Source: a virus. From it: a stretch of 64,000 nt of DNA. The translations under genes and the position numbers were made by a program. The stretch lies in the IMG/VR virus record IMGVR_UViG_3300029131_000181; one strand, given 5' to 3'. Of the stretch, positions 1 to 46,409 are shown piece after piece. The number at the start of each line of letters is the position of its first letter. Position 1 is the stretch's first letter. The notes under the pieces are model-generated. The model was not told where the DNA came from. It did no database searches and was given only the letters and a program-made list of their open reading frames with translations.

Positions 1-441
1 ACTGCTTCGAGACAAAAAGTATTTTTTGGCGATTTCCTTATCAGTCATTCCGGCTTTCGCATCTTCCAACATAGCCGCATTGCGAACTTTCGTGGCAGCA
101 GACTGCTTTTTCTTGTTCTTCTTAATCGTAGCTTGAGCGTATTCAGAAACAGTATAGTAGCACTGCTGATAGGTCACGCCATGCTTCTTTGCGATTTCAG
201 CAACCGTCATCCCGGCTTTCGCATCTTGAATCATAGCTTCGTCGAGAGGTGCTCTTTTTGCTTTCTTTGCAAGATTCTTTTCTTTTGCTAGGTCTCTCAC
301 CATGGCATAGCAATAAGAGCTTGAAAAATACGTTTCCTTGGCGATTTCCTTGACAGTTTTGCCAGAAAGATACATTTCCCGGACTTTTTCTCGGTCTTCT
401 TTGACCTGCTGCTTCGCAACATCTTTCTTTGATGCAGCCAT
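1..441 (-). CDS. multi-HTH repeat DNA-binding protein (3' end beyond window edge)
   Basis: ATG at 441 read by eye. Absent from the ORF track because no stop lies in the window. Translation MAASKKDVAKQQ..GKTVKEIAKETYFSSSYCYAMV..GMTVAEIAKKHGVTYQQCYYTV..GMTDKEIAKKYFLS shows repeated HTH-like units. Paralog of the next two genes. Confidence 0.6.
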   Translation of the reverse strand, partial: MAASKKDVAKQQVKEDREKVREMYLSGKTVKEIAKETYFSSSYCYAMVRDLAKEKNLAKKAKRAPLDEAMIQDAKAGMTVAEIAKKHGVTYQQCYYTVSEYAQATIKKNKKKQSAATKVRNAAMLEDAKAGMTDKEIAKKYFLSRSS

Positions 442-445
442 GCAA

Positions 446-964
446 TTATTCCTCACTTTGACAACTTTTACTTTTCCCTGGGCCTGGACTATACCGCTTC
501 ATGGCGCGATATACGCTTCCCTTTTTGAGCCCGTATTCTTCCGCAAGCTCTTTGACAGAAACGCCGTTTTTGTATTTCCTGACCATCTCGGCGTTTCTTT
601 TCTTGCCAGTCTCGATACGGTTTTGGCTGTGGATTTGTCGGCCATTCTTTCCGTGTGCATGAAGAATCCGATAAAAGAGCGTTCCACTGATGCCGTATTT
701 TTCCTGAAGCTCCGGAGATTTTGCGCCCATCTCATATTCATGAATCATCTGGGTTTGCCAGGCTTTCTTCTTTGCTTTTCTCTGCCGGGCCTGTTCTTCG
801 TAAAAGTCCTTCAGACTATATCGGACAGTAGAAACACAAATTTGATACTTTTCGGCCAGCTGTTCCTGGGACATACCGTTCTTGGCATCCTCCAGCATCT
901 TTTCATTTCGCGCCCTGACTTTGTCATGAGTTAGACACACGTGGGTAATCTTGTTAATCGGCAT
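446..964 (-). CDS. multi-HTH repeat DNA-binding protein
   Basis: 172-aa ORF with RBS AAGGAG 10 nt upstream. Three ~50-aa units such as MSQEQLAEKYQICVSTVRYSL, SPELQEKYGISGTLFYRIL and VSVKELAEEYGLKKGSVYRAM resemble resolvase/sigma-region-4 type HTH. Confidence 0.75.
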   Translation of the reverse strand: MPINKITHVCLTHDKVRARNEKMLEDAKNGMSQEQLAEKYQICVSTVRYSLKDFYEEQARQRKAKKKAWQTQMIHEYEMGAKSPELQEKYGISGTLFYRILHAHGKNGRQIHSQNRIETGKKRNAEMVRKYKNGVSVKELAEEYGLKKGSVYRAMKRYSPGPGKSKSCQSEE

Positions 965-1481
965 TTTCGCTATTCTCCTTAGCTCTGGCTTTTACGTTAT
1001 ACTGGTAAATCCCATTTTGATGAAGGATAAGATAACCTAGTGAAGGGCTGATATTTACCTCCCTGCTCAACTCGATAATCGATTTTCGAGGATTTTTCTT
1101 GTAAGCATCAAGAAAAGTTTGGTTCCGCATCTTTTTCTCTTTTTTGAGAGCTGTTTCAATATGATTGTATTTTTGGCTTTCGTACTCTCCGCTCGAATGC
1201 AAGATTGCATAAATACGCTGCATGGAAATGCCGTACATCTTGCCCAATTCTCTGGCCGTCATACCGCCTTTATACTGTTTAACAATTTGCTCATTTCGAG
1301 TGGTAAGTCTCTTCCTCTTTTTTTCAAAATAACGAGGCGGCTCCTGCGTACCTTTTAGAATCTTGTAGCACATCGTTTCTGAAAGATTATAGTCCCTCGC
1401 GATTTCTAAAATCGGCTTTCCATTTTTGTAATCTTCGATGATGCTTTTATTGCGGTTCATGCGTTCTTCTTTGTTTGACAT
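954..1481 (-). CDS. multi-HTH repeat DNA-binding protein
   Basis: ORF 954-1619 trimmed to the ATG at 1481 (GGAGG just upstream), giving MSNKEERMNRNKSIIEDYKNGKPILEIARDYNLSETMCYKIL... Same repeated HTH architecture. Confidence 0.7.
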   Translation of the reverse strand: MSNKEERMNRNKSIIEDYKNGKPILEIARDYNLSETMCYKILKGTQEPPRYFEKKRKRLTTRNEQIVKQYKGGMTARELGKMYGISMQRIYAILHSSGEYESQKYNHIETALKKEKKMRNQTFLDAYKKNPRKSIIELSREVNISPSLGYLILHQNGIYQYNVKARAKENSENAD

Positions 1482-1593
1482 AAAGCCTCCGATAAAAAGA
1501 AAGAGCAGGTTCAAAACTGAGCCCGCCCTAGCCTTTCGGTCGGATTTTGCCCGACCAACGATGTTTTTTGATGCCTTTCGTTCTATATTTTGT

Positions 1594-1621
1594 ATTATAT
1601 GCAATTCGCACAGATGCACAA
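1594..1621 (-). promoter_or_regulatory. motif-class promoter, copy 1
   Basis: Minus strand TTGTGC-ATCTGTGCGAATTGCA-TATAAT (16-nt spacer, GTGCGAA core). Upstream of gene start 1481. Confidence 0.6.
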
Positions 1622-1719
1622 TGTTTTTCTTTCTGGTAATTTATGGTAAGTGTTGTGCAAAAAAATAAGACCACCACCCTTTTTGGGGCAGTGGTCTTGA
1701 TTGCTATTGCTTTTGAAAA

Positions 1720-2169
1720 TCAATCCAGTAGTTTTCCGGCCTTGTATGAGTGGTACAAATAGCTCGGATTACAATAGTAAGTTGCAGTATTAAAATCTGA
1801 GATGTCATCGCTAATGAACGAGGAAAATACATCAATTACATCCTGGACACTAGGAGTGCTAGTACAGTCAAAGATGATGCGCTGGTACACTTTTCCGATA
1901 TCTGTATAAGATGGAACCTTGTAATGGCAGTTAGACACCGTATCATACGTTCCTTCCGGCACAGGAAAAAGCTCACAAATTTCATCGGCAGATTGCTCAA
2001 AGCTCTGGCAGTGAAACACATCCGCTGAGTCGAGAATTGCCTTGACTCCGTTTGTGCCAAGAGCAGAAACCACATCCTTGCGATGATTCCTCGTAACGCG
2101 GCCGATATATTCAATCAGGCTGCAGGTATAAAAGACATCGTTTTTGCTGTAGGTTGCAGTTTCAGTCAT
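1720..2169 (-). CDS. hypothetical protein, translationally coupled partner of the DUF3990-like gene
   Basis: 149-aa ORF whose start overlaps the upstream stop (ATGA at 2166-2169). No motif recognised. Confidence 0.65.
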   Translation of the reverse strand: MTETATYSKNDVFYTCSLIEYIGRVTRNHRKDVVSALGTNGVKAILDSADVFHCQSFEQSADEICELFPVPEGTYDTVSNCHYKVPSYTDIGKVYQRIIFDCTSTPSVQDVIDVFSSFISDDISDFNTATYYCNPSYLYHSYKAGKLLD

Positions 2170-2618
2170 ACTTCAATCGCCTCCTTAAAAGAGAGACATT
2201 TCAAAGCGACTTCCGTGTGAAAGCTGATTTGATGCGTGGGATGCTTGAATTTTGCCAACGCCCAAAAAGCTTCACGGCTAATATCACCGCTTAGAAAGTC
2301 GTTGACGTAGTTCCAAATGGTGTCATCCGCCATGGGTCCTTCCACAATATCATAGTCATGATGTTTGCCCGAACGACATATAGCAATAAAATCAAGCCAC
2401 TCATCACTCATTTCGGGGAATTTCTTAATATTTAGCATAGGAGATTCTGTATATTCAAACACGTTGACAATACCACGAGACCTGCCTTTTTTTGACCAGC
2501 GAGCGGCTTGTTCGTAGTTGCTAGTGCAATAGAATCCCCATGAAAAATCTTTGGCGTACCTTGTTTTTCTGACCTCAGGGTTGCGGACTATTACATCGCT
2601 GCCATGATACAGAACCAT
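2166..2618 (-). CDS. DUF3990-like protein, possible H-Y-E ADP-ribosyltransferase-type fold
   Basis: ORF trimmed to MVLYHGSDVIVRNPE. The N-terminal LYHGS, the FYCTSNYEQA tyrosine segment and VFEYTE fit the DUF3990 signature and an H-Y-E ART pattern. Called from memory, not searched. Confidence 0.6.
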   Translation of the reverse strand: MVLYHGSDVIVRNPEVRKTRYAKDFSWGFYCTSNYEQAARWSKKGRSRGIVNVFEYTESPMLNIKKFPEMSDEWLDFIAICRSGKHHDYDIVEGPMADDTIWNYVNDFLSGDISREAFWALAKFKHPTHQISFHTEVALKCLSFKEAIEV

Positions 2619-2739
2619 TATTATCACTTCCTTGCATATATTATACTTGTTTTTATGTGTTAACACAATCATTTCGTATGATTTTGGTTCCTACGCTTTT
2701 TGCTGAAAGAACCCGAATCAAAGTTTCGTTCTAGGAGTA

Positions 2740-4173
2740 TCAGCTGTTCGATTCACCCGGCAGCCACTGCTGAGGATAAGCGCGAAGCAGATTTTTCGGT
2801 ACGCAGTCATTCAGAGCGGAATTCTCAGCAAGAGCCATATCAATGATGTAGTAATCATTGCCGTTGCGCATTACATCGACGCTCCACTGCCCTGTCAACT
2901 CAATGCGAGGAATAACCTTCTTCAGCTCAGCCAGAACAGTTTGAACGCTTTCGTGGTAACGCTGGTTCAGAATGTCTTCATGCATCTTGTAGACAACATA
3001 ATCATGGCGTTCCTGTGGGCTGCTGACTTTTTTGAATTCGTTCTTCATAACATCGCTGCGCCAATAAGGACTTGCGCCAAGGATTTCCTTTGTATCAAAA
3101 TCCACAAACACGCGATATTCAGTGTGCAGCGGCAAACCGTTGTAGATGGTGGGGTTATTTTCTTTGTCCTTGATGTATTCTCTGACGACCCACTCGTTCG
3201 TGGTGTTCGCGCCGTAGAAGCAGCGATTGTTCAGAGGGGATGCCATCGAGCATGTCAGATGATTCAAAAACAAGAAATACTCGCCCATCTCATTGATTTC
3301 CTTCGGGTTATGGATATGAGCGTTGCGGAATTCGTATTTGGAAGAATACGTGCCCGTTTTGATAAAATAGTCTTCGTATCCATCAAGATGGAAGACTTTC
3401 TGGCAATAACGGTTCACGATTTCCTTTGTAACGGGATTCAACGTCTCGAAACCAAGGCGGGTAAGCTGCAGCATGGTGATAGGTACGCGAAGAATTTTTG
3501 TGTCCGGAACCTTGAAAAATGCGCTGCCGTACAATCCCTCTACCAGAGGAGGAAACCAGAAGCCCATAGAGTTGGGGTTCATCTCAAGCATCTGATAAGT
3601 GAAGTCATCAAGGTCGAGGATGTCAAGACCTTGACGGAACATGTTGTAGTAGAACATTTTTGTGCTGTCGTTCTTTGCATTCTTGTAGCCTGCGTAGTTT
3701 TGAAGCAATTCCTTGTACGACGGCTCAGAAATGTCAATCTTCATCAACTTTCCGGTGAGCTGCGGACGGAGTTCTTCGGGGTAGCGTTTCAACTCCTCGT
3801 TTGTAACCTCTGTCATAAAGTCGCGGTTGGCAGAGTATGTCACATAATAGCCACCGCGTTCCGCGTTGTAGATGTACAGACGCGTTTCAAGCACCAGTTC
3901 TGTGACGATGCGGTCAATGAGCGAATTGAGTTCCGGTGGGAAGTAGACCTTTTTGTCGAGAATTGCTTTGACTGTAGCTGTATCCCACTGGAGCATATTT
4001 TCATGCAGCTCTCCGCTTTCAAGAACCTGTGTCTTATAGACCTCATCAAAGGTTTTGAGGGCATCAGGGTCAGTTTTGAGCATTGCTGCAAGCTCCTCAT
4101 AAGAAAACGGCTTATCTTTCTTATCGGTTAAGATGGCGCTGATTTGTTCAAACATGTCTTTTGTTTCAGTCAT
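2740..4173 (-). CDS. ATP-grasp-fold protein (R2K/CDC123-like clade candidate)
   Basis: 477-aa ORF with RBS AAAAGGAG. Motifs HTEYRVFVDFDTKEILG and QWSVDVMRNGNDYYIIDMALAENS are typical of ATP-grasp C-terminal halves. Confidence 0.6.
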   Translation of the reverse strand: MTETKDMFEQISAILTDKKDKPFSYEELAAMLKTDPDALKTFDEVYKTQVLESGELHENMLQWDTATVKAILDKKVYFPPELNSLIDRIVTELVLETRLYIYNAERGGYYVTYSANRDFMTEVTNEELKRYPEELRPQLTGKLMKIDISEPSYKELLQNYAGYKNAKNDSTKMFYYNMFRQGLDILDLDDFTYQMLEMNPNSMGFWFPPLVEGLYGSAFFKVPDTKILRVPITMLQLTRLGFETLNPVTKEIVNRYCQKVFHLDGYEDYFIKTGTYSSKYEFRNAHIHNPKEINEMGEYFLFLNHLTCSMASPLNNRCFYGANTTNEWVVREYIKDKENNPTIYNGLPLHTEYRVFVDFDTKEILGASPYWRSDVMKNEFKKVSSPQERHDYVVYKMHEDILNQRYHESVQTVLAELKKVIPRIELTGQWSVDVMRNGNDYYIIDMALAENSALNDCVPKNLLRAYPQQWLPGESNS

Positions 4174-4243
4174 TTGTGGTCTCCTTTTCTAAAAAAGCCA
4201 CCGTTTCTGTAGGAAAACAGTGGCAATGTATAAGTGATATGGT

Positions 4244-4984
4244 TTAGCTTGCAATGTACAACTCGCTGTTGGAAATGTTTTCCAGCCAGTTTTTGTTCAT
4301 TACATTACCAAAACGATATTTCTTCTGCGACTTGTAGGACCAATCGCAGCCGGAAACGACATCACCGATGGCGTTCAAGTACAGCTCGCCGCTGTAAAAG
4401 TCGATATCGCCGGTTTTGTTGAATTCGTATTCGAGCTTGTCTACATGAGGTTCACGCTTCTTATAGATATTCGAATCGAGATTCTTAGCACGCCCTTCGT
4501 TCAGTAAATAAGCCAGATGGAAGTCCGTTACCTTATCGTTACGGTTATATTTCAAGCCACTAAGGATACTTTCACTTTCATATGGGATTGCTTCGTGGAA
4601 GTTATCACTGCTGATGCAAAGACCGCACATATAGTCATCTTTTTCATCGCAGTAGGCCCACCACTCCAGACTCGCCATAGCAAGGTCAGCCATCTTATCG
4701 ACAGCTTTTCCGTTAGCGACCATGTAAAAGCTTCCAACGGCGATACCGCGCTCTTTGACAGCTTTCAAGGTGTATCGAATTGCCGGTATATTCAGAGAGA
4801 TTTCCCCACCGGTAAAGGTAAGAGAGCTGATATAAGCTCCCTTCTCAAAGTTGTCGAGAAAAGCATCGATGTACTTCTCCTGAATATCGATGCTTTCGGC
4901 ATCTCCGCGCAGGCAGTGCGCACAGCACATATTGCATCGGCGCGTAACTTCTATGAATACGTTGTTTGCGCTATAAATACGCAT
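4244..4984 (-). CDS. radical SAM enzyme
   Basis: 246 aa. VTRRCNMCCAHCLRG contains CX3CX2C, followed by the TFTGGE glycine-rich SAM motif. Confidence 0.85.
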   Translation of the reverse strand: MRIYSANNVFIEVTRRCNMCCAHCLRGDAESIDIQEKYIDAFLDNFEKGAYISSLTFTGGEISLNIPAIRYTLKAVKERGIAVGSFYMVANGKAVDKMADLAMASLEWWAYCDEKDDYMCGLCISSDNFHEAIPYESESILSGLKYNRNDKVTDFHLAYLLNEGRAKNLDSNIYKKREPHVDKLEYEFNKTGDIDFYSGELYLNAIGDVVSGCDWSYKSQKKYRFGNVMNKNWLENISNSELYIAS

Positions 4985-5002
4985 TTTTTCATGCCCTTTC
5001 TG

Positions 5003-5329
5003 TTATTCTTCCTCGCAATCCTCGTAGTCGTCCATGAAGTTCTCGTTGCGGTCGACGACAACATTCACATCCGGCGGAGCGATTTTAGTCAGACCATAGT
5101 TCAAGAAGAACGAGCCGGGAATGTCATCGACATCGCCCCAGTTCCAGCAACCACAGTTGATTTCCAGCTGTCGTTTGCCTTCATCCGTCTTGAGATAGTC
5201 CTTGACAGCACTGCGCAGGACCGTTTCGGGGTCACGGATTTGCTCCGGATTGTAGCTAAACTGAATCAGTGTGCATTCCGTTGCGGATAAGCCAATGACC
5301 TCATTGGCGACGATAGTGAATACTTCCAC
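5003..5329 (-). CDS. hypothetical acidic protein
   Basis: 108-aa ORF with GTG start and GGAGGG RBS. Acidic C-terminus DDYEDCEEE. Confidence 0.6.
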   Translation of the reverse strand: MEVFTIVANEVIGLSATECTLIQFSYNPEQIRDPETVLRSAVKDYLKTDEGKRQLEINCGCWNWGDVDDIPGSFFLNYGLTKIAPPDVNVVVDRNENFMDDYEDCEEE

Positions 5330-5345
5330 CGTAAGTTCCCTCCCC

Positions 5346-5672
5346 TCACGCGTTGACGATACCGCCGTGCTTGGCCAGAACCGCGTCTACGGTTTCTACG
5401 GGCACATACCCGTAGACCGTAGCCAGCGGTGCCTCGTCGTCTTCAGCAAACGGCAGAAACTCTTCGACCTCCTCAGACAAGTAGCTGAGTTCGACCTTAG
5501 AGTAATTGCCGTCCGACAGGTCTTCGTTCGGTATGCAGTAGTGCATGCCACTTGCCTGAATCGACAGGGTGAAGCCGTCTGCACAAACTGCTTCCGGACG
5601 AAGTGCAGCAGTACCAAAGATGGTCTTGCTGAAGGTTTTGCGGAGAAATTCGTTGGTATTGAAAATAGCCAT
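5346..5672 (-). CDS. hypothetical protein
   Basis: 108-aa ORF with RBS AAAGGGAG. Confidence 0.6.
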   Translation of the reverse strand: MAIFNTNEFLRKTFSKTIFGTAALRPEAVCADGFTLSIQASGMHYCIPNEDLSDGNYSKVELSYLSEEVEEFLPFAEDDEAPLATVYGYVPVETVDAVLAKHGGIVNA

Positions 5673-5707
5673 AGTAATATGCTCCCTTTCTGTGTGTGAG
5701 ATGTTTC

Positions 5708-6448
5708 TTAGATGTACTTTTCCCAGAAGCGCTCGAACTCTTCGTCCGGCATCTGGGCTTCGGTTTCATCCATCACGCGGTCGTAAGTATCGCTGGAAAT
5801 GTCGGTCCCGACAAAATCAGCAACAGCCTCATGTCCGCGCTTCTGGATGGCATCCTTCAGGATAGCCCAACGACATTCGTGAATGGCATCATCCAGCGTT
5901 TTGTTGCCATCAGGCTGCCAATACTCGCCTGTCTGCTGAATTCTATAAAGCTCATCCAGCGCATCATCAACATTGTTTTCGAGAAGAATATCGTCAATAA
6001 AATTGATAGGATAATCCTTGCCGTTGATTTTCACTTCTGCATAACTGAACGAGTCATCATTATCGGGGCTTGCGCAGCATTCGACAGCAAAAACTTCATG
6101 GGTTTTGCGGTTGGCTTTGCATGGCAGATTGAACATTGCACCGGAATCAAAGCAGGACTCAATGCAGGCATTGACCACATCGCTTACGGGAGACTCTGCA
6201 GCCTCCTGATATTCCGGCATGTGCCAGATGTCGATGCTTGCCTTGTTGGTATCCTCAATGTTGCGGACCTTCAAGACACGGACACCCTTCTTCTCCATGT
6301 GAATGACGGCACGGCACAGGTCCACACGGATTTCGTGTGAATCCATAATGGTGCCACGGTCATCCTTAGGTAGGAAGATTTCGATAACTTTGTTGATATC
6401 GGGGGTTTCGGCGACGAAATAGACTTTGTCATCGTGAATTTTGAACAT
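5708..6448 (-). CDS. hypothetical protein
   Basis: ORF 5708-6472 trimmed to MFKIHDD (AAGGAG 9 nt upstream). Acidic, no motif recognised. Confidence 0.65.
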   Translation of the reverse strand: MFKIHDDKVYFVAETPDINKVIEIFLPKDDRGTIMDSHEIRVDLCRAVIHMEKKGVRVLKVRNIEDTNKASIDIWHMPEYQEAAESPVSDVVNACIESCFDSGAMFNLPCKANRKTHEVFAVECCASPDNDDSFSYAEVKINGKDYPINFIDDILLENNVDDALDELYRIQQTGEYWQPDGNKTLDDAIHECRWAILKDAIQKRGHEAVADFVGTDISSDTYDRVMDETEAQMPDEEFERFWEKYI

Positions 6449-6473
6449 TGCATTACGCTCCTTCTTGTTCATA

Positions 6474-6514
6474 CAAAAAGGGCGGGCTCCCTAAAAACAG
6501 GAAGTCCGCCCTTT
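6474..6514 (-). terminator. leader hairpin + U-run between promoter and RBS
   Basis: Minus strand AAGGGCGG-loop-CCCGCCCTTTTTGT, immediately before the AAGGAG RBS of gene 6448. Confidence 0.6.
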
Positions 6515-6585
6515 AAGCGAAATTGTGAATGTACGAAAGGCATAAAACCCTTTCGATATAGAATGTTATCTATCGTACAATTTTT

Positions 6586-6613
6586 ATTGTAGTCGGTTCG
6601 CACAGCTTGTCGA
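6586..6613 (-). promoter_or_regulatory. motif-class promoter, copy 2
   Basis: TCGACA-AGCTGTGCGAACCGAC-TACAAT on the minus strand. Confidence 0.55.
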
Positions 6614-6631
6614 GTAAATCAGGTGCAATTT

Positions 6632-7792
6632 TTATGGTTTGCAAATCCCACACGCCGAATACCCTTCCTGGATGAGCTCATCGCGGGGCCCCATATAGTC
6701 GATTCGATTCTTTTGACTCATCGATTCGACTGCAGAGCAATCGGGTTTGTGAAACTTCATAGTGCTCGTGTTCAGAACGTATGTCTCGTCTATGACAAGT
6801 GAAGCTTTGTCCTGTTCATCCTTGGAATCTGCAGCACTACCGGCTTCAATCCGATTTTCATCATGATATTCACCGGAAGTGAAACTTACCTCTTTGCCAT
6901 CCGAGGTGCAGTAAATATCACCCAGCAGGTCTGTGCGATAAACCTCGACACCTTTGTTTTGCAACTTGTCGAGTGTTTCCTGATGTGGATGACCGTAACT
7001 GTTCCCTGTGCCACAAGAAATCACAGCATATGTTGGATTTACCGCATCCAGAAAAGCCTCTGAGGTAGATGTACTTGAGCCATGATGCCCTACTTTCAGA
7101 ACTGTTGACTGAATGTCTTGTCCCGATGCAAGTATCACGTTTTCCGCTTCCTGTTCCGCATCTCCGGTAAAGAGGAACGAGGTGTCTCCATAGACAATAC
7201 GCAAAACAATCGAAGTATTGTTCGTGTCATCGGGAACAGAATTAACACCAACTATCGTGAATTCTGCTTTCCCTAGAGTATAAGTGTCTCCCACATCCGG
7301 TATCGTGATGCCTCCGCCTTTCTGTTCCGCGTGGCTTGCAAAGTCCCGAAATGCTTTGCTGTCGTATTCTGTCACAGGGCATAGAGTCATGTCCGCAGTG
7401 ACGGCCTCAAAGGCACCGGACAAGCCGCCGATGTGGTCTTCGTGCGCGTGAGTCCCAACGACATAATCCAGGTGCCCATCGGTTTCACGCTGCATAACAG
7501 AATATAAGAGGTTAGAATCATCGACATTACCGCCATCAATAAGCATTGAGTGGCCGTCGCAGGTGATAAGGGCGGAATCCGCCTGCCCTACGTCTATAAA
7601 GTGAATGGTAAAGCTGCCGTCCACCGAACCGCCAGCCGTCTGTTCACTGCTTGCAGTGCTTTCTGAGACGACCCCGGTGCTGGATGGACTTTCCGATATT
7701 ATCGGATTCTGACCGCAGCCGGTGAAGCTGAGTGCAAGGAGCGTAGCGATGATTGCCGCCGTGCTCCGGAATAGATTGTTTTTGAGTTTCAT
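6632..7792 (-). CDS. MBL-fold metallo-hydrolase lipoprotein (ComEC C-terminal-domain-like)
   Basis: Lipobox LALSFTGCGQ. HFIDVGQADSALI..GTHAHEDHIGG..GHHGS metallo-beta-lactamase motifs. C-terminal Cys/His cluster HKPDCSAV..CGICKP. Confidence 0.9.
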   Translation of the reverse strand: MKLKNNLFRSTAAIIATLLALSFTGCGQNPIISESPSSTGVVSESTASSEQTAGGSVDGSFTIHFIDVGQADSALITCDGHSMLIDGGNVDDSNLLYSVMQRETDGHLDYVVGTHAHEDHIGGLSGAFEAVTADMTLCPVTEYDSKAFRDFASHAEQKGGGITIPDVGDTYTLGKAEFTIVGVNSVPDDTNNTSIVLRIVYGDTSFLFTGDAEQEAENVILASGQDIQSTVLKVGHHGSSTSTSEAFLDAVNPTYAVISCGTGNSYGHPHQETLDKLQNKGVEVYRTDLLGDIYCTSDGKEVSFTSGEYHDENRIEAGSAADSKDEQDKASLVIDETYVLNTSTMKFHKPDCSAVESMSQKNRIDYMGPRDELIQEGYSACGICKP

Positions 7793-7809
7793 ACTTTTTC
7801 TCCTTTCAA

Positions 7810-7850
7810 CAAAAAAAGCGGACCTACCCCGCTATGGGATAAGTCCGCTT
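7810..7850 (-). terminator. leader hairpin + U-run between promoter and RBS
   Basis: Minus strand AAGCGGAC-loop-GTCCGCTTTTTTTGTTGAAAGGAG, followed by ATG 7792. Confidence 0.65.
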
Positions 7851-7901
7851 AAAATACAGATTGTGAATCCTACTGATTTTTAGTATCTGTTCACATTTTA
7901 T

Positions 7902-7929
7902 ATTGTACGGCGTTCGTATATTTTGGCAA
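7902..7929 (-). promoter_or_regulatory. motif-class promoter, copy 3 (degenerate core)
   Basis: TTGCCA-AAATATACGAACGCCG-TACAAT. Confidence 0.45.
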
Positions 7930-7932
7930 GCG

Positions 7933-8145
7933 CTATTTTTCCCCAAACTTGATGTCGATATATACAATCTCAAAGCACAGTGCAGCGCTCAAGGCAAATC
8001 CGAGAACGATATACGACGGGTGAGTTAAGGACCAGCCAGGATTCGCTAGATACCCATGCCAATATCTAATGTTAAGTACAAAAATAAACACCGGCAGAAT
8101 TAGATACCAGATGCTTTCCAGCACAATTTTGATGTCTTTTCGCAT
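7933..8145 (-). CDS. small membrane protein
   Basis: 70 aa with two hydrophobic segments. Confidence 0.5.
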   Translation of the reverse strand: MRKDIKIVLESIWYLILPVFIFVLNIRYWHGYLANPGWSLTHPSYIVLGFALSAALCFEIVYIDIKFGEK

Positions 8146-14577: not shown

Positions 14578-14760
14578 CGGACTTCCAACTTTTCACGGGT
14601 TGCCCCGTTACTCAGTATGGATTTCTGCTTCATAGAGCGAGCTTACCGCAAGCCGCAGCTCTTGATAGAGGCTCGCTCTCCACAGACTTTAAGATTCGGT
14701 CGTCCTGACCGTACTGTTCGCCTGTGGTTATGAGGCGGCTGGCGTAGCCAGCATGTCCAT
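14578..14760 (-). ncRNA. TnpB omega RNA / right-end region (extent approximate)
   Basis: GC-rich nested hairpins overlapping and following the tnpB 3' end (GAGAGCGAGCC...GGCTCGCTCTA, CGGGGCAACCCG). By analogy to characterised TnpB loci. Confidence 0.5.
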
Positions 14761-15837
14761 TCCTTTCTTTAGAATGTTTTCTGCTGCATTTTTATCCCTA
14801 TCGTGTGATGTGTTACATTTCGGACAGACCCAATGCCGAACATTGAGGTTTTTTACCTCTTTGTTTTGGTAGCCGCAGCAAGAGCAGGTCTGGCTGCTTG
14901 GATAGAAGGTTGGTATTTTTACAACTACTCTTCCTGCCCAACTGGATTTATAATCAAGTTGTCGGAAGAACTCTCCCCAAGAAACATCGGAAATACTTTT
15001 AGCAAGGTTATGATTGCGAACCATACCATTTACATTGAGGTCTTCTACACAGATGATTTGGTTTTCTTTCACCAGTGTAGATGACAACTTGTGTAGGGCA
15101 TCTTTTCGCTTATTGGTCACTTTTTCGTGGCAGCAAGCCACCTTGATACGTTGCTTCTCCCAGTTGGCAGAACCTTTCTTTTTGCGTGACAGCTTTTTCT
15201 GCTCACGCTTTAGTTTAGCTTCCGCTTTCTGAAGATATTTATTGTTTGGATATTCTTTTCCATTGCTGTCAACAGCAAAAGATTTGATGCCAACATCTAA
15301 ACCGATGACGGTATCTTTAACCGGAAGCGGCATTACTTCTACTTTGCAAAGAATACTTACATAGTATTTGCCGCTTGCTGAGCGACGGATTGTTGCCTTA
15401 CAGATGCGTCCCTCAATGTTGCGACTCTTACGATAACGCATCTTCCCAAGTGTCGGAAGCTGAATGTACTTATCGTCAACTTTAATGCTTTTTGCTTTTG
15501 TAGTTGTATAGCTTTCTTCTCCCCGTTTTCGTTTGAATTGGGGGAACCCTTTACCGTCTTCGAAAAAGCCTTTATAGGCATTATTTAACTGACGACAGCT
15601 ATATTTGAGTGCTTGACTATCTACTTCAGCAAGCCAAGGAAGATAAGTTTTCATCTGAGGAAGCAGATTTTGTGTATCAATATAGCTCATACTTTCACCG
15701 CGCCGTTGATAAGCTTTTATACGCCTATCTAGCATAGAGTTATATACAAAACGGCAGCAGCCGAGCGTTTTATTGATTTTGACTTTCTGTTCTTCTGTTG
15801 GCTCTAGCCGAAATTTATAGCCTTTATGTACTTTCAA
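14728..15837 (-). CDS. tnpB: TnpB (OrfB) RNA-guided nuclease
   Basis: [18 protein letters not shown]-terminus, RuvC motifs ([26 protein letters not shown]) and zinc ribbon CSCCG..CPKCN. TTG start with AGGAGG RBS. Confidence 0.95.
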
Positions 15838-24844: not shown

Positions 24845-25981
24845 TTACATATCCGACTTCGCCGCATTACACTTCTTGCACAGCATCTGCAGATTGTCAT
24901 CAGTGGTATGTCCGCCCTTGCTCCAAGGAATGATGTGGTCGCCTTCCATATCCTCAAAGGCGTACTCGGTGTTGATGCCATTTGCAACGCACAAGGGGCA
25001 CTTGTGACCCTGCCGCTCATAGGCGCGGAGTTTCTGCGACTCAGTAAATGCACGAAGGGACAGATGCTTTTCGTCGCGCCAAGTGCGGTCAGAGAGGATG
25101 AACGGGACAATGCCTGCCTTCTTGGTCACGTCATCATCCAGCACGAGTTTCTTGATATCAGCGTCCAGAGCGTTGCTATTATACTGCTTTGCATGGTACT
25201 TGTTGTAGAGTAGTCCCCATGCCTGTGTATCCGTAATTCCCTTCCGCTTGGTCGGGAACAACATTTTAGCCCAGTTGATTACAGACTGGAAGTAAAGCCA
25301 GAGGTCATTGGCGTCCTCGTCATGCTGGTGAATCGCCATGTACATCTGCCCGGATTCCAGACCATCACGGTCAGCAATCCACGCCAGTGCCTTTTCCAGC
25401 AACTCCTGCCGAATCGGGTTACCTTTCAGGTATCCGTCAGCCATCTTCGCAGCAACACAGTTGCGTTTCGAGAAGTAGTTCTTGGCATCGGCCAGCCACG
25501 GTCCTGTATAAGTAGCGTTCAGCAGCTCCTGCGGAGTCAACACCTCACCGGCGATGTTGATGCGCTTGAACCATTCCAGTTTCTCGGCTTCGGAGCCTTC
25601 ACAGATATTCACGGTCAACTCGTAGTCCAGAATTTTCTGTTTTTCCTCATCTGTCAAGTTCTGGAAGAACTTGTCGTTGCCGTTGATTTTGACGGGGAAA
25701 TCCTTGTTGACATACTGTGCAATGGAAATTGTCCGCTGTTGTCCATCGAGAACCTCGTAGGTATCTGGACCGGTCTTGGACCAGTACATGAGGTTCAACG
25801 GGAATCCGTTCATTACCGAATCAATGACGGCTGCACGCTGTTTATCGGAGAAGCAAAAATTTCTTTGGTAGCTTGGCCTAATCGTGAGGCGATTGTTGTA
25901 CCCATATACGCCACTGTCTCCGTCATCCGAATAGTTCTCTACAAGGTCGGATACCTTGATTTTGGTTTCTGTGATTTTCAT
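24845..25981 (-). CDS. DUF262 (GmrSD N-terminal-like) + HNH endonuclease fusion
   Basis: IRPSYQRNF..EVLDGQQRTISI is the DUF262 hallmark. C-terminal HKCPLC..GDHIIPWSKGGHTTDDNLQMLCKKCNAAK is an HNH motif. ATGA overlap with the upstream gene. Confidence 0.85.
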   Translation of the reverse strand: MKITETKIKVSDLVENYSDDGDSGVYGYNNRLTIRPSYQRNFCFSDKQRAAVIDSVMNGFPLNLMYWSKTGPDTYEVLDGQQRTISIAQYVNKDFPVKINGNDKFFQNLTDEEKQKILDYELTVNICEGSEAEKLEWFKRINIAGEVLTPQELLNATYTGPWLADAKNYFSKRNCVAAKMADGYLKGNPIRQELLEKALAWIADRDGLESGQMYMAIHQHDEDANDLWLYFQSVINWAKMLFPTKRKGITDTQAWGLLYNKYHAKQYNSNALDADIKKLVLDDDVTKKAGIVPFILSDRTWRDEKHLSLRAFTESQKLRAYERQGHKCPLCVANGINTEYAFEDMEGDHIIPWSKGGHTTDDNLQMLCKKCNAAKSDM

Positions 25982-26862
25982 AACAATTTCCTTTCTCTGC
26001 CCACAATGTTAATATCGTCAGCACTTTTTATAATTGCTTTTATTATATTCTGCGTCAACTCATATTTAGAAATTACATGCTTTTTGGCAGATGCATAAGA
26101 AGCGGCATTCAGACGCATCACATCCTTTTCTTTCGCATTGCGAATCAATCTATTCTCCTTTTGCAACGAAGAGTTGCTGCCGCATGATGTAACGCAGTAA
26201 ATTTTTGGCGACAATATTGTGATAACCATATGATTTGATAAACTATATTCTGTGCCTGTGTTATTCAAACAGCCTGTACCCAGCACAAGCCCTATATCCG
26301 GAAGTAAAATGGCGCTATTGTTTGCTTTATAGATAACGGTTCCTGAACTGTAATATCCAATTTTTACTTTATAGTAGTTCCACTCATTATCAGATAACTT
26401 TGGATGGTTCCCCGTCTGTATAAATTTCATGAAATTGCAAAATGCTTCTTCTGTATCGAACAGTTTTTTTATTTCGTCTATATACGATGGTAGCCTGAAC
26501 AGCATACGCAAGGCATACTCTCCAAGCCAATGCGCAGATTCTTCGGATATTCTATTTTCCGAATTCAAATAAGTTGTTTTATCAATTTCATTAAGAATTT
26601 CGTTCAACTTTTTCGCATCAGAATTCTCAATATCATTGCTCAGGAGTCCTTTTTCAATCTTCCCACGATAGCATTCGTTCCATTTTTTGAGCTCTGGATA
26701 TTCATATAAATTGTTTTCCGCTGCAATACCTTTTACATTTGCCCCTACATGTATAATTTTTCCAGTTTCCTTGTTATATACAAAAAAATTTCCGTCTTTT
26801 CCAGCGAATTTTTTCAGTCGGTATTTTGGCAAATAATGTTGATTTTCATTTTGTACCTTCAT
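25978..26862 (-). CDS. DUF4238-like protein
   Basis: Trimmed to MKVQNENQHYLPKYRLKKFA (AAAGGAGG RBS). The N-terminal HYLPK..LK.F signature is recalled from DUF4238. AT-rich. Confidence 0.6.
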   Translation of the reverse strand: MKVQNENQHYLPKYRLKKFAGKDGNFFVYNKETGKIIHVGANVKGIAAENNLYEYPELKKWNECYRGKIEKGLLSNDIENSDAKKLNEILNEIDKTTYLNSENRISEESAHWLGEYALRMLFRLPSYIDEIKKLFDTEEAFCNFMKFIQTGNHPKLSDNEWNYYKVKIGYYSSGTVIYKANNSAILLPDIGLVLGTGCLNNTGTEYSLSNHMVITILSPKIYCVTSCGSNSSLQKENRLIRNAKEKDVMRLNAASYASAKKHVISKYELTQNIIKAIIKSADDINIVGRERKLL

Positions 26863-27910
26863 CGCCTTGCTTCCTCCTTTTTCTGATAAAAATTCTCTGA
26901 TAAACTGCAGAAAGCTGCACGCCATCAGGGCTTACCGAAAAGTCGCTCCTTCCTCTTTTAACAACTTTTGGTGACATCTTATCTCTTAATGCACCAGAGC
27001 CGGAGATTGTTACGCCATCCGCCTTGAAGAACTTAAAGCCAAGGCTTGTATAATCTTTATCGGCTCTGCAAGGCGTATCATCGAACATGGAACCACCAAC
27101 AATCTCAAACTGCTCCGGATTATACTTATCCAAAAAAGTGATAGGCACGCCCATAACGCCTTCATAGTCCACCGGAATATTCGCAACCCTATCCACATTG
27201 ATGGCCATGTAGTTATCATAGCGGGGGTAGCGCTCTTCCACGTCCGGCAGAGGGTTTCCGTCATCGTCATAGTACCGCTGCCAGAGAATCAGTTTCTCGT
27301 GGCGCTTCTGGATGTCGAGGTTAGTAAACCATCTTGTTAGACCGTTGATTTTCTTTGTTATTCCATTGGGGGTATCAAACTCGGATGGTGAGCTATAACC
27401 AATCCACACTTTGTTTTCTTTCAGAAGTGGAAAAAACTCTTTGTATGTAATGGCGTTCTTATTCCCGATAATCAGGAACTTTTTGCCGTGCTGCATCAGT
27501 GTGCCAACATACTCACGGAATAAGCTGAATGGCGGATTGGTCACCACGATATCACTTTCATCCAGCAAGTCAAGGCATTCCTTGCTCCGGAAATCGCCGT
27601 TGCCTTCCAGCAGGGTTTTTACACCGACTTCCACATCATTATCATCTCCGCCCTCGTACTCCATCTTGTAGGTTGGTTCGGTGTGGTCATAGTGCGTAGA
27701 AATCAGCTTCTTTAAGCCAAGTTCTGCAAAGTTCAGGTGAAAATACCGCCAGAAAGCGGACCATGTCGGGTCGTCACAGTTGCAGAATACAACCTTGCCT
27801 GCGAAATGCTTCTTGTAGTGCCGCAATTCCTCTGCGACATCCTCGATTCTGGTGTAGAACTCATCATTCTTCGCGTCCTTCGCCTTATGAAGGTTATCGT
27901 TCTTTGCCAT
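26846..27910 (-). CDS. N6-adenine DNA methyltransferase (EcoRI-methylase-like family)
   Basis: Trimmed to MAKNDNLHKAKDAKNDEFYTR..VVFCNCDDP..LGLKKLI. Catalytic VVTNPPFS. Confidence 0.85.
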   Translation of the reverse strand: MAKNDNLHKAKDAKNDEFYTRIEDVAEELRHYKKHFAGKVVFCNCDDPTWSAFWRYFHLNFAELGLKKLISTHYDHTEPTYKMEYEGGDDNDVEVGVKTLLEGNGDFRSKECLDLLDESDIVVTNPPFSLFREYVGTLMQHGKKFLIIGNKNAITYKEFFPLLKENKVWIGYSSPSEFDTPNGITKKINGLTRWFTNLDIQKRHEKLILWQRYYDDDGNPLPDVEERYPRYDNYMAINVDRVANIPVDYEGVMGVPITFLDKYNPEQFEIVGGSMFDDTPCRADKDYTSLGFKFFKADGVTISGSGALRDKMSPKVVKRGRSDFSVSPDGVQLSAVYQRIFIRKRRKQGDEGTK

Positions 27911-43570: not shown

Positions 43571-43689
43571 AGGGCACTTCTTCCTTCCGTCTCAAAGACA
43601 ATTTGCCGGGACTGTCTCCCGTTGCCCGCTGCTCGCCGCGTGGAGGCTGTCTTTTGGAGCAGCTGCGCGGACAAAACCGCGCTTTTGAG

Positions 43690-45384
43690 TTACATCTCTG
43701 CGTTAAACAGGTTGCGGAGCTTGTAGGTGATATCCTCGCTGTTGCCGACGATAGCTGCCGCTTCGTTGATGGAAGCGAGCTCCGAAAGACTATCCGCTGC
43801 GTAGTTGTAGCTGATGGTGTAAATGGGGATATCCATACCGGCAATGATGTTCTTCGTATCGGAGAAGCCATATCCGGTATTGTTGTCACCGTCCGTGAGC
43901 ACAAAGATGATGGGCGTGCAATTCCCACCCAGTTCCTGAGATTTCTGGTAGATGCGGTCCATAGCAACGCAAAGACCGTTGTACATTGCGGTGCTGCCGT
44001 TCGCATCGAGGGAGTTCACGGCACCCTTATACAGAGTTTTCTGGGTCAGAGAGAACTGGTTAATGGGCAGGTATTCCCTGACATCTGAATCAAAGCCAAT
44101 GATGCCGATATAGTTGTCGTCATTGATATACTGGATGGTGTTTATCATCGCGGTTTTCAGGGCATTCAGGGGTTCGCCGCGCATCGAGCCGGAAGTATCG
44201 ACAACGAACTCTGCCACAATAGGAATGCCTGAGTCCTTCTCTTCTTTCCAGACACTCTGAGCCTGTGCGATGGTGTTGCCATCGTATGCCTTGCCTGTAT
44301 AAGCATAGTCGTCAAGACCATTGAATCCGTCCTTGGTCGCCTCTGCCTGGTTCTGAGCGCAGAAGGAAACGAAGGCAGCAATAACTTCCTTCTTCTCCGC
44401 AGAGACATTCCCGATGGAATACAGAGGATTATCGTGCCGTACACCGAACGGGATGAACTCGTAGTTGCGCTGTAAGGTCGGGTCATTCTGATAAGACTGA
44501 TACTCCATGACAACGCCGTCCACGATGCCCTTGTCTGCCGACTGGACCATCTGCTGGGTCGTGAAGGATACGAGAGGGACGTTCGCTTGAAATTTCTGGA
44601 AATTCTCAACAGCAGCCGTATCGACAATCGTATCGCTGCCGCTGCTCGCAAGAGCCTCAAGCAGAAAATTAAGACCCGTAGCACTTGTGTAGGGGTTCGA
44701 GTATCCCATCATGAGTTTGCCATCGATGGTTGCGTTCAGAACGGAAGAAACAGACGCTTCACCGTATTCAGAGCGAAGCATATCCCCTGTCTTCTTTGAT
44801 ACGAGAATACCCGCCACATTGCCGACCAGACGGTCAGCCTCAACGGTCAATTCTACGCCCTCGTTCTTCACCAGCTCGCCAAAGAGCGTATTTGAGGGGG
44901 TATAGCACTCGGGCTGATACTTTCCCGTCGAGATGTACTCAGCCGCCGTACCGGACGGAATGGAGCGCAGGGAGACACTCATAGTCTTGTCTCCGGAAGT
45001 CTTGTTGTGCTGGGCGTTGAACTTCTTTGCCATTTCGGTCAGGAAAGAATCTGAGCCGGACTCTGCTGCTTTCTCGCCAGAGGAAAAGATTTCGATGTTC
45101 ACATCTCCGTTTCCTACGACCACGAATGGGTAGGAGGATTCAATGTCGGGCAGTTCATCCTTTGCATCAAGGAATTCAGAGACATCCAGCTGCTGAGGAT
45201 TGACCTTGACCTCCTGCACGCCGATGCGCTTCATCTTGCTGCTCAAGTTGGCATATGCCTGCTCGGACGTCATTGTACTAATGCTGACGTTTGAGTCCCT
45301 CATCACCGTCATCGAAAATACTCCGAGAACAACGCCTACCACAGCAATGGTTGCAACCACAGGGAAAATGTTCTTTTTTGTCAC
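43690..45384 (-). CDS. membrane-anchored vWA-domain protein
   Basis: GTG start after AAAGGAG. N-terminal TM IFPVVATIAVVGVVLGVF. C-terminal MIDAS VVDTSGSMRGEP..TAMYNGL..LTDGDNN. Confidence 0.85.
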   Translation of the reverse strand: MTKKNIFPVVATIAVVGVVLGVFSMTVMRDSNVSISTMTSEQAYANLSSKMKRIGVQEVKVNPQQLDVSEFLDAKDELPDIESSYPFVVVGNGDVNIEIFSSGEKAAESGSDSFLTEMAKKFNAQHNKTSGDKTMSVSLRSIPSGTAAEYISTGKYQPECYTPSNTLFGELVKNEGVELTVEADRLVGNVAGILVSKKTGDMLRSEYGEASVSSVLNATIDGKLMMGYSNPYTSATGLNFLLEALASSGSDTIVDTAAVENFQKFQANVPLVSFTTQQMVQSADKGIVDGVVMEYQSYQNDPTLQRNYEFIPFGVRHDNPLYSIGNVSAEKKEVIAAFVSFCAQNQAEATKDGFNGLDDYAYTGKAYDGNTIAQAQSVWKEEKDSGIPIVAEFVVDTSGSMRGEPLNALKTAMINTIQYINDDNYIGIIGFDSDVREYLPINQFSLTQKTLYKGAVNSLDANGSTAMYNGLCVAMDRIYQKSQELGGNCTPIIFVLTDGDNNTGYGFSDTKNIIAGMDIPIYTISYNYAADSLSELASINEAAAIVGNSEDITYKLRNLFNAEM

Positions 45385-45385
45385 G

Positions 45386-46189
45386 TTAAATTTCTCCTTT
45401 CAAGTTGTTATATCGTTTCATAGCCTCACGACTGATATCTTCATCCTGTTCAATATCCTGCGTCGTCTTGTTAATGACAGCATCGAGCTTTGACATTGCG
45501 AGCACAACCTCTGTATCCCACGGATTCTGGGCAGAACGTTGGTTCAGAGCGTATGCTAAAGAATCCAATCGGAGGATTAAGCGCTCATTGTCATGAACTA
45601 CCTTATCCACGGTACTTACGATACCATTGTAGATTTCTTTCTTTTTCTGCGCTTCTTCTTTGTTTCCAAACGAGATAGAGCCTTGACAGAAAGCCTTGTA
45701 TTCCGTTTCATCAAACATTGAAGCCGAGCGAATCGCGTCATCCAGTCGGTCATAGAAGATACGTTCTGCGGATTCCAATAACGTTAGGCACTTGGCTTGT
45801 TCCCCGGATGTCTTGCTATCCTGGGTCATGCTGTAGGCAACGGCCATTTTTTGCCCGAAGCGCCGTACCTGATACAGCATTTGGTCAGCCTGCTCTGAGA
45901 AGACGCTTTTTGTCTTTACTGCCGTTTGAATTTTGTTGGTATACAGCTCTTCTTTGCTTGTAGGCCGTTCAGATGCAGCAGAAGCCGCAGCTTTCTGCTT
46001 TTTGAGAAAATTGCGATATGCAATGTAGGCGCAGAGCAGCAGGAACAGGACTGGCGTGCCATATTTCGCAAGGAGGATAAGGAACAGCGATGTTCCGTGC
46101 ATGTATTCGATAGTGTAATAGGTGCTGATATAGGTTTCGACCATGTAGACTATAGCCGCTGCTATGATAATCAAACTCACGCCGAGCAT
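45386..46189 (-). CDS. membrane protein with helical cytoplasmic domain
   Basis: Trimmed to MLGVSLIIIAAAIVYMV (GGAGAGG RBS). Two N-terminal TM segments. The stop abuts the vWA start. Confidence 0.65.
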   Translation of the reverse strand: MLGVSLIIIAAAIVYMVETYISTYYTIEYMHGTSLFLILLAKYGTPVLFLLLCAYIAYRNFLKKQKAAASAASERPTSKEELYTNKIQTAVKTKSVFSEQADQMLYQVRRFGQKMAVAYSMTQDSKTSGEQAKCLTLLESAERIFYDRLDDAIRSASMFDETEYKAFCQGSISFGNKEEAQKKKEIYNGIVSTVDKVVHDNERLILRLDSLAYALNQRSAQNPWDTEVVLAMSKLDAVINKTTQDIEQDEDISREAMKRYNNLKGEI

Positions 46190-46259
46190 TAACTTCACCT
46201 CTCCGGTTTTACTCTATTTGCTATCAAGAGGGCTTGATACGAAGTATCTTTTGCTTCTA

Positions 46260-46287
46260 ATTATCTTCGATTCGCACGATTCAGCAA
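46260..46287 (-). promoter_or_regulatory. motif-class promoter, copy 15
   Basis: TTGCTG-AATCGTGCGAATCGAA-GATAAT. Confidence 0.55.
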
Positions 46288-46409
46288 CAAAGCCTTAACA
46301 TGCAAAAAAGACAGTCACCCTAATTGGATGGCTACCATGAACTTTTCGTTTGCGTCACAACAGAAAAAAGGATGGCTCTTTCGAGTCACCCTCTTTTTAT
46401 TCGTTGTCT

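Follow-up and report, generated by a model that had tools for sequence, protein, structure and literature searches.

The gene block

The window studied here is a stretch of 64,000 nucleotides from a record classed as viral (IMG/VR, IMGVR_UViG_3300029131_000181). Near its start lie seven minus-strand open reading frames (ORFs), which we call g1 to g7 in their 5' to 3' order, g1 being the first and g7 the last (Table 1). They code for three acidic proteins (g1 to g3), a very small radical S-adenosylmethionine (radical-SAM) enzyme (g4), an ATP-grasp protein (g5) and a DUF3990 protein with its partner (g6 and g7). A first-pass annotation, made from the sequence alone, read the seven genes as one modification pathway. 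We argue that the block is quite probably a mosaic of independently gained and lost accessory ("conflict") genes, with at least three independent modules on one strand, and not one pathway.

All seven ORFs are present where the first-pass annotation had placed them, and their close packing is confirmed: the gaps from g1 to g6 are of 35, 16, 18, 70 and 67 bp, and the ATGA coupling reported for g6 and g7 corresponds to an overlap of 4 bp. Every motif that it quoted (CNMCCAHC, EYRVFVD, WSVDVMRNGNDYYIIDM, LYHGS, FYCTSNY and VFEY) was found, and g1, g2 and g3 are indeed acidic, with isoelectric points of 4.57, 4.27 and 4.05. The ATG of g1 at 6448 is preceded by an AAGGAG ribosome-binding site. The product of g6 probably starts at M19 (ATG at 2618, MVLYHGS, 150 aa), because both the Pfam and the PADLOC profiles begin at residue 19 and because the upstream ATG at 2672 belongs to flanking sequence that is kept in genomes without g6.

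The signals around the genes are less clear-cut than was first proposed. The promoter announced upstream of g1 does exist as a consensus match, with 10 of the 12 consensus positions matched (6613-6586), but such matches are no commoner than in shuffled sequence (10 in positions 1-8000, against 11.5 +/- 3.6 in shuffles). Regarding the operon, the shared strand and the tight spacing stand, but one unbroken operon across all seven genes is doubtful, because an 11-bp stem followed by a T-run (4224-4197) separates g4 from g5 inside the block. Another terminator-like hairpin (GGGCGG...CCCGCCC, then TTTTT; 6478-6521, minus strand) lies in the 5' leader of g1, after the promoter-like site; it may be an attenuator or a target of antitermination.

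Table 1. Genes and other features of the block, in the order of transcription.
Feature	Position	Strand	Description
Promoter-like site	6586-6613	-	Sigma-70-like, TCGACA-16-TACAAT; consensus match only; in the 159-bp gap 5' of g1
g1	5708-6472	-	254-aa ORF, acidic; probable start at ATG 6448 (246 aa)
g2	5346-5672	-	108 aa, acidic
g3	5003-5329	-	108 aa, acidic; conserved core and acidic tail
g4	4244-4984	-	246 aa; minimal radical-SAM enzyme, SPASM/twitch structural class
Terminator-like hairpin	4197-4224	-	11 pairs and TTTTTT; between g4 stop and g5 start
g5	2740-4173	-	477-aa ATP-grasp protein, Cdc123/R2K clade; N-terminal extension of about 165 aa
g6	2166-2618	-	DUF3990, of the ADP-ribosyltransferase (ART) clan; PADLOC PDC-M10A; putative toxin/effector; ORF reaches 2672 (168 aa)
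g7	1720-2169	-	149-aa partner; PADLOC PDC-M10B; putative antitoxin/immunity protein; ATGA overlap with g6
g6+g7 cassette	1716-2663	-	948-bp insertion/deletion, from alignment with the empty sites L022, L025 and L031
Terminator	1667-1698	-	Strong, intrinsic; 13 pairs and T-run; closes the unit; kept in filled and empty cassette alleles

Conservation of the genes in relatives

Relatives of g5 were collected from IMG/VR (on contigs of up to 389 kb), from metagenomes and from 45 bacterial genomes or metagenome-assembled genomes, and all proteins of the window were scored against them. A second scan of viral contigs, with an alignment as the query, returned mostly close relatives and no added distant loci, and a megablast search of positions 1-8000 against phage and plasmid collections returned nothing.

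The genes g6 and g7 form an independent cassette, which is present or absent as a unit: 37 of the 86 viral loci that were scored have both genes, 49 have neither, and one is never found alone. The pair is present in 35 and absent from 20 of the loci whose g5 is at least 95% identical to that of the window, present in 2 and absent from 4 at 84-94% identity, and absent from all 25 loci below 80%. The alignment with the three empty sites reveals a clean indel of 948 bp. Its flanks are nearly identical, its junctions show TGATT microhomology, and it is located exactly between the stop codon of g5 and the shared terminator. In relatives, the same site has at least four other fillings: a 359-aa ORF, this same ORF with a TnpB, an RRXRR-HNH set, and a set with a dCMP deaminase. 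The pair is also found alone between sugar-utilisation genes in the chromosome of Marvinbryantia formatexigens, and DUF3990 genes occur on 89 plasmids.

Among neighbours of at least 70 aa, none is conserved next to g5 across 47 diverse loci: when the 817 ORFs of these loci were clustered, the commonest neighbour family was found in five of them. A pooled Pfam scan of 150 neighbours gave four Radical_SAM matches, which were not individually resolved; a scan of all ORFs of the g5 neighbourhoods with motifs and hidden Markov models (HMMs) revealed radical-SAM proteins of other types (NrdG-like, and DUF5131-like by motif).

Regarding g4 and g5, 38 of the 66 members of the lineage have the two genes side by side. 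In 16 lineage loci a TnpB element or a 342-aa ORF lies between them, and among the members that keep g5 the radical-SAM gene is truncated in six and absent from six. Outside the lineage, a radical-SAM gene of the g4 family adjoins the g5 homologue in a single one of 44 distant loci. This locus (L112, 7191-9380) belongs to an unrelated Oscillospiraceae genome, in which a radical-SAM protein (41% identity) is encoded 12 bp upstream of the g5 homologue (46% identity) and nothing else is shared with the window. Conversely, neither g5 nor DUF3990 is present in six independent contexts of distant radical-SAM homologues (39-53% identity), which are either phage-like or resemble integrative and conjugative elements (ICE-like, with YodL or TraG). 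The genes g4 and g5 are not obligate partners.

The survey of the neighbourhood of the radical-SAM, ATP-grasp and DUF3990 trio, which the first-pass annotation had proposed, thus finds an independent cassette, a g5 devoid of conserved neighbours and distant radical-SAM genes without g5. The same annotation had named a lack of co-conservation elsewhere as what would refute its seven-gene pathway, and the genes are not co-conserved.

Another observation concerns the interval between g4 and g5: in six relatives, a TnpB-like element with hairpin ends has its insertion site exactly after the stop codon of the radical-SAM gene and before the hairpin in front of g5 (for example, L006 5900-7700).

The DUF3990 protein and its partner

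That g6 is DUF3990-like, with an ART-type fold, is borne out: the protein matches Pfam DUF3990 with an E-value of 1.3e-51, and Pfam places this family in its ART clan (PMC7955679). The match to ART-PolyVal is weak (E 0.0011). The H-Y-E triad that had been read in g6 holds in part. H5 (LYHGS) and Y30 (FYxT) are invariant, but the glutamate of VFEY is not conserved, since it is replaced by a leucine in the Marvinbryantia homologue; this comparison is a three-sequence alignment only.

The statement that the combination matches no named defence system has to be corrected in part, since g6 and g7 match the two components of the PADLOC candidate PDC-M10, PDC-M10A (9.5e-78, profile positions 1-148 of 152) and PDC-M10B (3e-55, profile positions 4-146 of 147), respectively. 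The PDC entries are 145 untested candidates, proposed by guilt-by-embedding in BREX, DISARM or type I restriction-modification (RM) loci (bioRxiv 10.1101/2024.01.29.577857). DUF3990 is also known as a C-terminal toxin domain of Rhs proteins, with a downstream immunity gene (PMC4524185).

The layout is that of a type II-like toxin-antitoxin (TA) module: two small, overlapping and co-inherited genes, with the pair standing alone in a chromosome and DUF3990 genes on plasmids. Probably, g6 is a toxin and g7 its cognate neutraliser. We know of no demonstration of ADP-ribosylation by a DUF3990 protein. On the Clostridium botulinum plasmid pCLI (L210, 2280-3215), genes for a DUF3791 protein (74 aa), a DUF3990 protein (161 aa) and a 75-aa ORF come directly after rep, and the first two share a 4-bp overlap. 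The Pfam model of DUF3791 does not recognise g7, whose residues 31-73 resemble DUF3791 weakly (pairwise E 0.033).

The radical-SAM enzyme

The identification of g4 as a radical-SAM enzyme was right, and the enzyme is a genuine member of the superfamily: it has a partial TIM barrel, the CX3CX2C cluster motif and the motif GGE for the binding of SAM. Its Pfam Radical_SAM match is just at the cut-off (29.4 bits) and its Fer4_12 match is above its own cut-off. In 48 homologues (39-93% identity) the CX3CX2C motif, GGE and the residues S125, D127, F129 and H130 are invariant. Other cysteines are highly conserved, namely C112 (93%), C120 (88%) and C213 (97-100%), and could hold an extra cluster; the match to SPASM is weak and partial (E 0.018, 15.8 bits against a cut-off of 21.5). 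The family includes about 350 proteins of 237-258 aa.

The AlphaFold2 (AF2) model of g4 is confident (pLDDT 91.7), and its nearest structural relatives include YydG, ChlB, anSME, CteB and SuiB. The best matches in sequence or structure are maturases of ribosomally synthesised and post-translationally modified peptides (RiPPs), YydG, PapB, ChlB, CteB and SuiB; the score of g4 is far under each NCBIfam equivalog cut-off.

Two specific assignments were rejected. The first is that of a RiPP maturase equivalent to YydG or PapB, for which g4 scores 34.6 bits against 300 and 25.3 against 340, respectively, and no precursor with conserved cysteines is linked to it. The second is that of a prokaryotic viperin (pVip), for which the score is 24.8 bits against 180 (NF038283) and the PADLOC pVip match (26 bits) covers residues 11-97 only. 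In a distinct locus (L207, 4236-5729), two tandem paralogues of the g4 family (248 and 242 aa) are encoded within an array of small genes.

The ATP-grasp protein

The first-pass annotation had recognised the hallmarks of an ATP-grasp protein in g5. The call was right and can be refined, as g5 is a divergent ATP-grasp family of the R2K/Cdc123 type. It has no Pfam match at E <= 0.1 and none in NCBIfam or PADLOC, and its only PHROG match is the unannotated phrog_12834. Sequence searches against the Protein Data Bank, with the single sequence or with a profile, gave chance-level matches only and were uninformative, so that a comparison of structures was needed. The AF2 model has a pLDDT of 92.4; the closest solved structure is that of Cdc123, and the structural relatives include the amide- or peptide-bond ligases Ddl, LysX/ArgX and RimK.

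The R2K clade is defined by an invariant lysine on strand 2 of the RAGNYA fold and by a second conserved lysine or arginine in the next loop; the arginine of the ExR motif is typical of the ATP-grasp ligases that form amide or peptide bonds (PMC4431377). The two lysines and the ExR motif of g5 fit the definition of this clade. K272 lies in the strand 269-273 and K279 is seven residues downstream. In a 69-sequence alignment, K279, E352, R354, D433, D445 and S452 are invariant and K272 is present in at least 90% of the proteins. The terminal ExN motif reads D445-M-A447, so that the acidic residue is kept and the asparagine is replaced. The Pfam R2K_2 model is weakly matched by 13 of the 69 relatives (best E 0.0077), and the gathering threshold of R2K_2 or R2K_3 is not reached.

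The homologues of g5 number about 1,900, and a library-wide search gave 631 clusters at 50% identity. Homologues exist in cultured phages, such as Staphylococcus SPbeta-like phages, Streptococcus Javan420, Clostridium Maintenon and Fusobacterium phiFN37, where all are annotated as hypothetical; in the Staphylococcus SPbeta-like phage, the g5-type gene heads an array of small genes. Cdc123 itself is an ATPase, an ATP-grasp chaperone for the assembly of eIF2, with no demonstrated ligase product (PMC8844851, PMC12860950). In the literature we found no functional study of prokaryotic R2K enzymes, DUF3990, DUF3791 or PDC-M10.

The acidic proteins

For g1, searches of Pfam, PHROG, NCBIfam and PADLOC gave zero matches; for g2 and g3, Pfam, NCBIfam and PADLOC gave nothing, and PHROG gave a marginal match for g2 only. 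Homologues of g1 (49-63% identity) have moved to the downstream side of g5 in two relatives (L001 and L073), and g2 is missing from relatives whose g5 is 75-76% identical. The protein g3 has a conserved core (FTI..NE, NWGD..IP and VD.NE) which resembles a folded domain, while its cysteines and its tail vary among homologues. Its gene is mostly found directly upstream of the radical-SAM gene; it is also present without a radical-SAM gene in four loci (L171, L199, L201 and L202). It may be that g1 to g3 are akin to the small acidic early proteins of phages. The possibility that g3 is a cysteine-rich RiPP precursor was rejected, its cysteines and its tail not being conserved.

Interpretation and alternatives

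In the reading that we favour, a large gut element would gather accessory "conflict" genes at this hot spot. The g4 and g5 families are usually found alone, in sets of small accessory genes that belong to phages, prophages or conjugative elements, and each would act on its own target. With ATP, g5 would most probably either ligate an amino acid or a peptide to a protein of the host or of the phage, or remodel such a protein in the manner of Cdc123; either mechanism is plausible, as Cdc123, the sole characterised member of the clade, is an ATPase chaperone. Its structural neighbours suggest that g4 would abstract a hydrogen atom, by radical chemistry, from a peptide or protein substrate. Last, g6 and g7 would form a self-contained module of the same kind as PDC-M10, an ART-like toxin and its neutraliser. 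Having been inserted between g5 and its terminator, the 948-bp cassette would hitch-hike on the g5 transcript by read-through, and its role is probably in addiction or in competition between elements.

Gene content, folds and conserved catalytic residues were observed, as were the presence/absence polymorphism and the missing co-conservation; this reading adds predicted substrates and biological roles. Several points weigh against it. The substrate, the activity and the phenotype of all seven proteins are predicted only; the toxicity of g6 and its neutralisation by g7 are likewise deduced, and PDC-M10 is itself an untested candidate. The order g3, radical-SAM gene, g5 is syntenic in 54 of the 66 lineage genomes, and the recurrence of the neighbouring pair in L112 keeps a facultative link between g4 and g5 alive, albeit with a low probability. 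The phage identity of the element is also concerned, because the window has no phage structural genes and no type IV secretion system (T4SS) genes, and because some of the distant radical-SAM homologues sit in ICE-like contexts.

A single pathway, encoded by one operon, in which the radical-SAM, the ATP-grasp and the ART-like enzyme together modify a nucleotide, a nucleic acid or a protein, would agree with the common strand, the tight spacing, the overlap of g6 and g7, the single promoter-like site upstream and the strong terminator downstream, and with the fact that all three enzymes look catalytically intact. We nonetheless consider it very improbable: the cassette is missing from 20 of the 55 sisters whose g5 is at least 95% identical and from every relative below 80%, it comes and goes by a clean indel, and the pair exists alone elsewhere and has a match in an independent two-gene candidate; g5 lacks conserved neighbours, the distant radical-SAM homologues do without g5, g1 is relocated and g2 missing in relatives, and a hairpin parts g4 from g5. 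A RiPP-like cluster is just as hard to believe. In this scheme g3 or a short ORF would be a precursor, matured by the radical-SAM enzyme and cyclised or ligated by the ATP-grasp protein, as in graspetides or ranthipeptides. The RiPP maturases found as the best matches of g4, the fact that graspetides are made by ATP-grasp enzymes and the tail of g3, which is rich in Asp, Glu and Cys, would fit. On the contrary, the cysteines and the tail of g3 vary and its core looks folded, g4 has no RiPP recognition element (RRE) or PqqD domain and matches SPASM only in part, none of the neighbours of g5 that reach 70 aa is conserved, and there is no transporter or protease gene.

Two narrower proposals deserve more attention. 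In the first, g4 (perhaps together with g3) and g5 would share one protein target, as a facultative phage protein-modification pair; a radical modification might, for instance, come before or after an ATP-dependent ligation. The adjacency and synteny in the lineage, the independent adjacency in L112, in a locus that is otherwise unshared, and the protein- and peptide-directed enzymes among the structural relatives of both proteins all point in this direction. We nevertheless regard it as unlikely, considering the 43 of 44 distant g5 loci that have no radical-SAM gene of the g4 family, the absence of g5 from all six distant radical-SAM contexts, the 12 lineage members that retain g5 with a lost or truncated radical-SAM gene, the hairpin and the insertion sequences between g4 and g5, and the occurrence of g3 without a radical-SAM gene. 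That g4 and g5 form a facultative system with which large gut phages would place a new covalent modification on a protein of the host, or of the phage (a translation factor, for instance), for takeover or evasion of defence, is likewise improbable. The other proposal bears on g5 alone. Instead of being a ligase, g5 would resemble eukaryotic Cdc123 in its ATP-dependent role, as a binder or an assembly chaperone, and would capture or remodel a host factor, such as a translational GTPase. This is a possibility that we take seriously while thinking it rather less than probable. It is consistent with Cdc123, experimentally an ATPase chaperone, being the closest solved structure, and with the loss of the canonical asparagine of ExN. 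The conservation of both lysines and the invariance of the ligase-typical arginine of ExR and of two acidic residues argue in the opposite direction, and bacteria have no eIF2.

With the block read as a mosaic of accessory genes, the apparent seven-gene pathway becomes something ordinary, a site where a large phage-like gut element collects and swaps accessory genes; what it offers is three enzyme families of uncharacterised activity, and no new system. The Cdc123-like ATP-grasp family spans the phages and prophages of Firmicutes, forms about 630 clusters at 50% identity and is missed by the Pfam R2K models; the radical-SAM family is very small and restricted to mobile elements; and the PDC-M10 DUF3990 pair is found here on the virus side of the conflict. 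Should g5 prove to be a protein ligase, the prokaryotic R2K clade would have its first biochemical activity, with a bearing on the origin of Cdc123. If g4 and g5 did form a system, L112 would provide a second case of the pair, independent of the first.

The element and its surroundings

IMG/VR gives a viral class to the element, a large mobile element of the gut which is probably a jumbo phage of Oscillospiraceae-type hosts. The label "phage" rests on the IMG/VR class, on Mor-type regulators and on homing endonucleases, because structural and T4SS genes are lacking in the window; no tRNA genes were found in it either. The block is flanked by a metallo-beta-lactamase gene and by a pair of Mor-type regulators, the latter just downstream. 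HNH and homing endonucleases are numerous in the window, which also codes for several helicases, a TnpB, a GmrSD-like nuclease, a DUF4238 protein and an SPFH/VWA pair.

Some of these neighbours can be described further. The metallo-beta-lactamase (6632-7792, minus strand) is secreted or lipoprotein-like and of the ComEC type; it matches phrog_14556 at 1e-96, its C-terminus weakly matches the Ada zinc-binding domain, and its gene adjoins the block in relatives too. The TnpB/IS605 OrfB gene is at 14728-15837 (minus strand). A conflict-type pair at 24845-26925 (minus strand) consists of a GmrSD_N+HNH nuclease gene (378 aa) which overlaps the DUF4238 gene (315 aa), and the genes of the VWA-domain protein (564 aa) and of the SPFH/flotillin protein (547 aa) lie close together at 43690-48053 (minus strand). 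An HDV-like ribozyme at 43594-43663 (minus strand) matches Rfam RF02682 (HDV-F-prausnitzii) with 60.4 bits, against a gathering score of 44, which hints at a Faecalibacterium-type host or lineage of the element.

Comparison with known systems

Compared to the Cdc123/R2K clade (Burroughs, Zhang & Aravind 2015, PMC4431377; PF18299, PF14243), g5 falls outside the Pfam R2K models and has the asparagine of ExN replaced (D-M-A); unlike its shorter phage homologues, it has an additional domain at the N-terminus, of about 165 aa.

The SPASM/twitch enzymes (the peptide epimerase YydG/EpeE, ChlB, anSME, BtrN, CteB and SuiB) are the structural class of g4, which differs from them by its 246 aa, the absence of an RRE or other leader-binding domain, a C-terminus that is at most a half-twitch, the lack of a linked precursor gene, and the confinement of its family to the accessory regions of mobile elements. 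The similarity to pVip is limited to the N-terminal, cluster-binding part of about 100 residues; YydG-type enzymes are structurally closer, and no nucleotide kinase is linked to g4.

As for g6 and g7, they are on a virus-classed element and not in a bacterial BREX, DISARM or RM locus, contrary to PDC-M10 (Payne et al. 2024, preprint), with which they share matches to both component HMMs and the organisation in overlapping genes that always travel together. In the plasmid DUF3990-DUF3791 pairs, the DUF3791 protein (that of pCLI) is short, at 74 aa, and encoded upstream, whereas g7 has 149 aa and is encoded downstream. Last, although g6 is a DUF3990 protein and not DarT, and g7 has neither a macrodomain nor any other Pfam match, the pair resembles DarT-DarG and other ART-fold TA systems in being a two-gene module which associates an ART-clan protein with an overlapping partner, is carried by mobile elements and has a link to phage defence.

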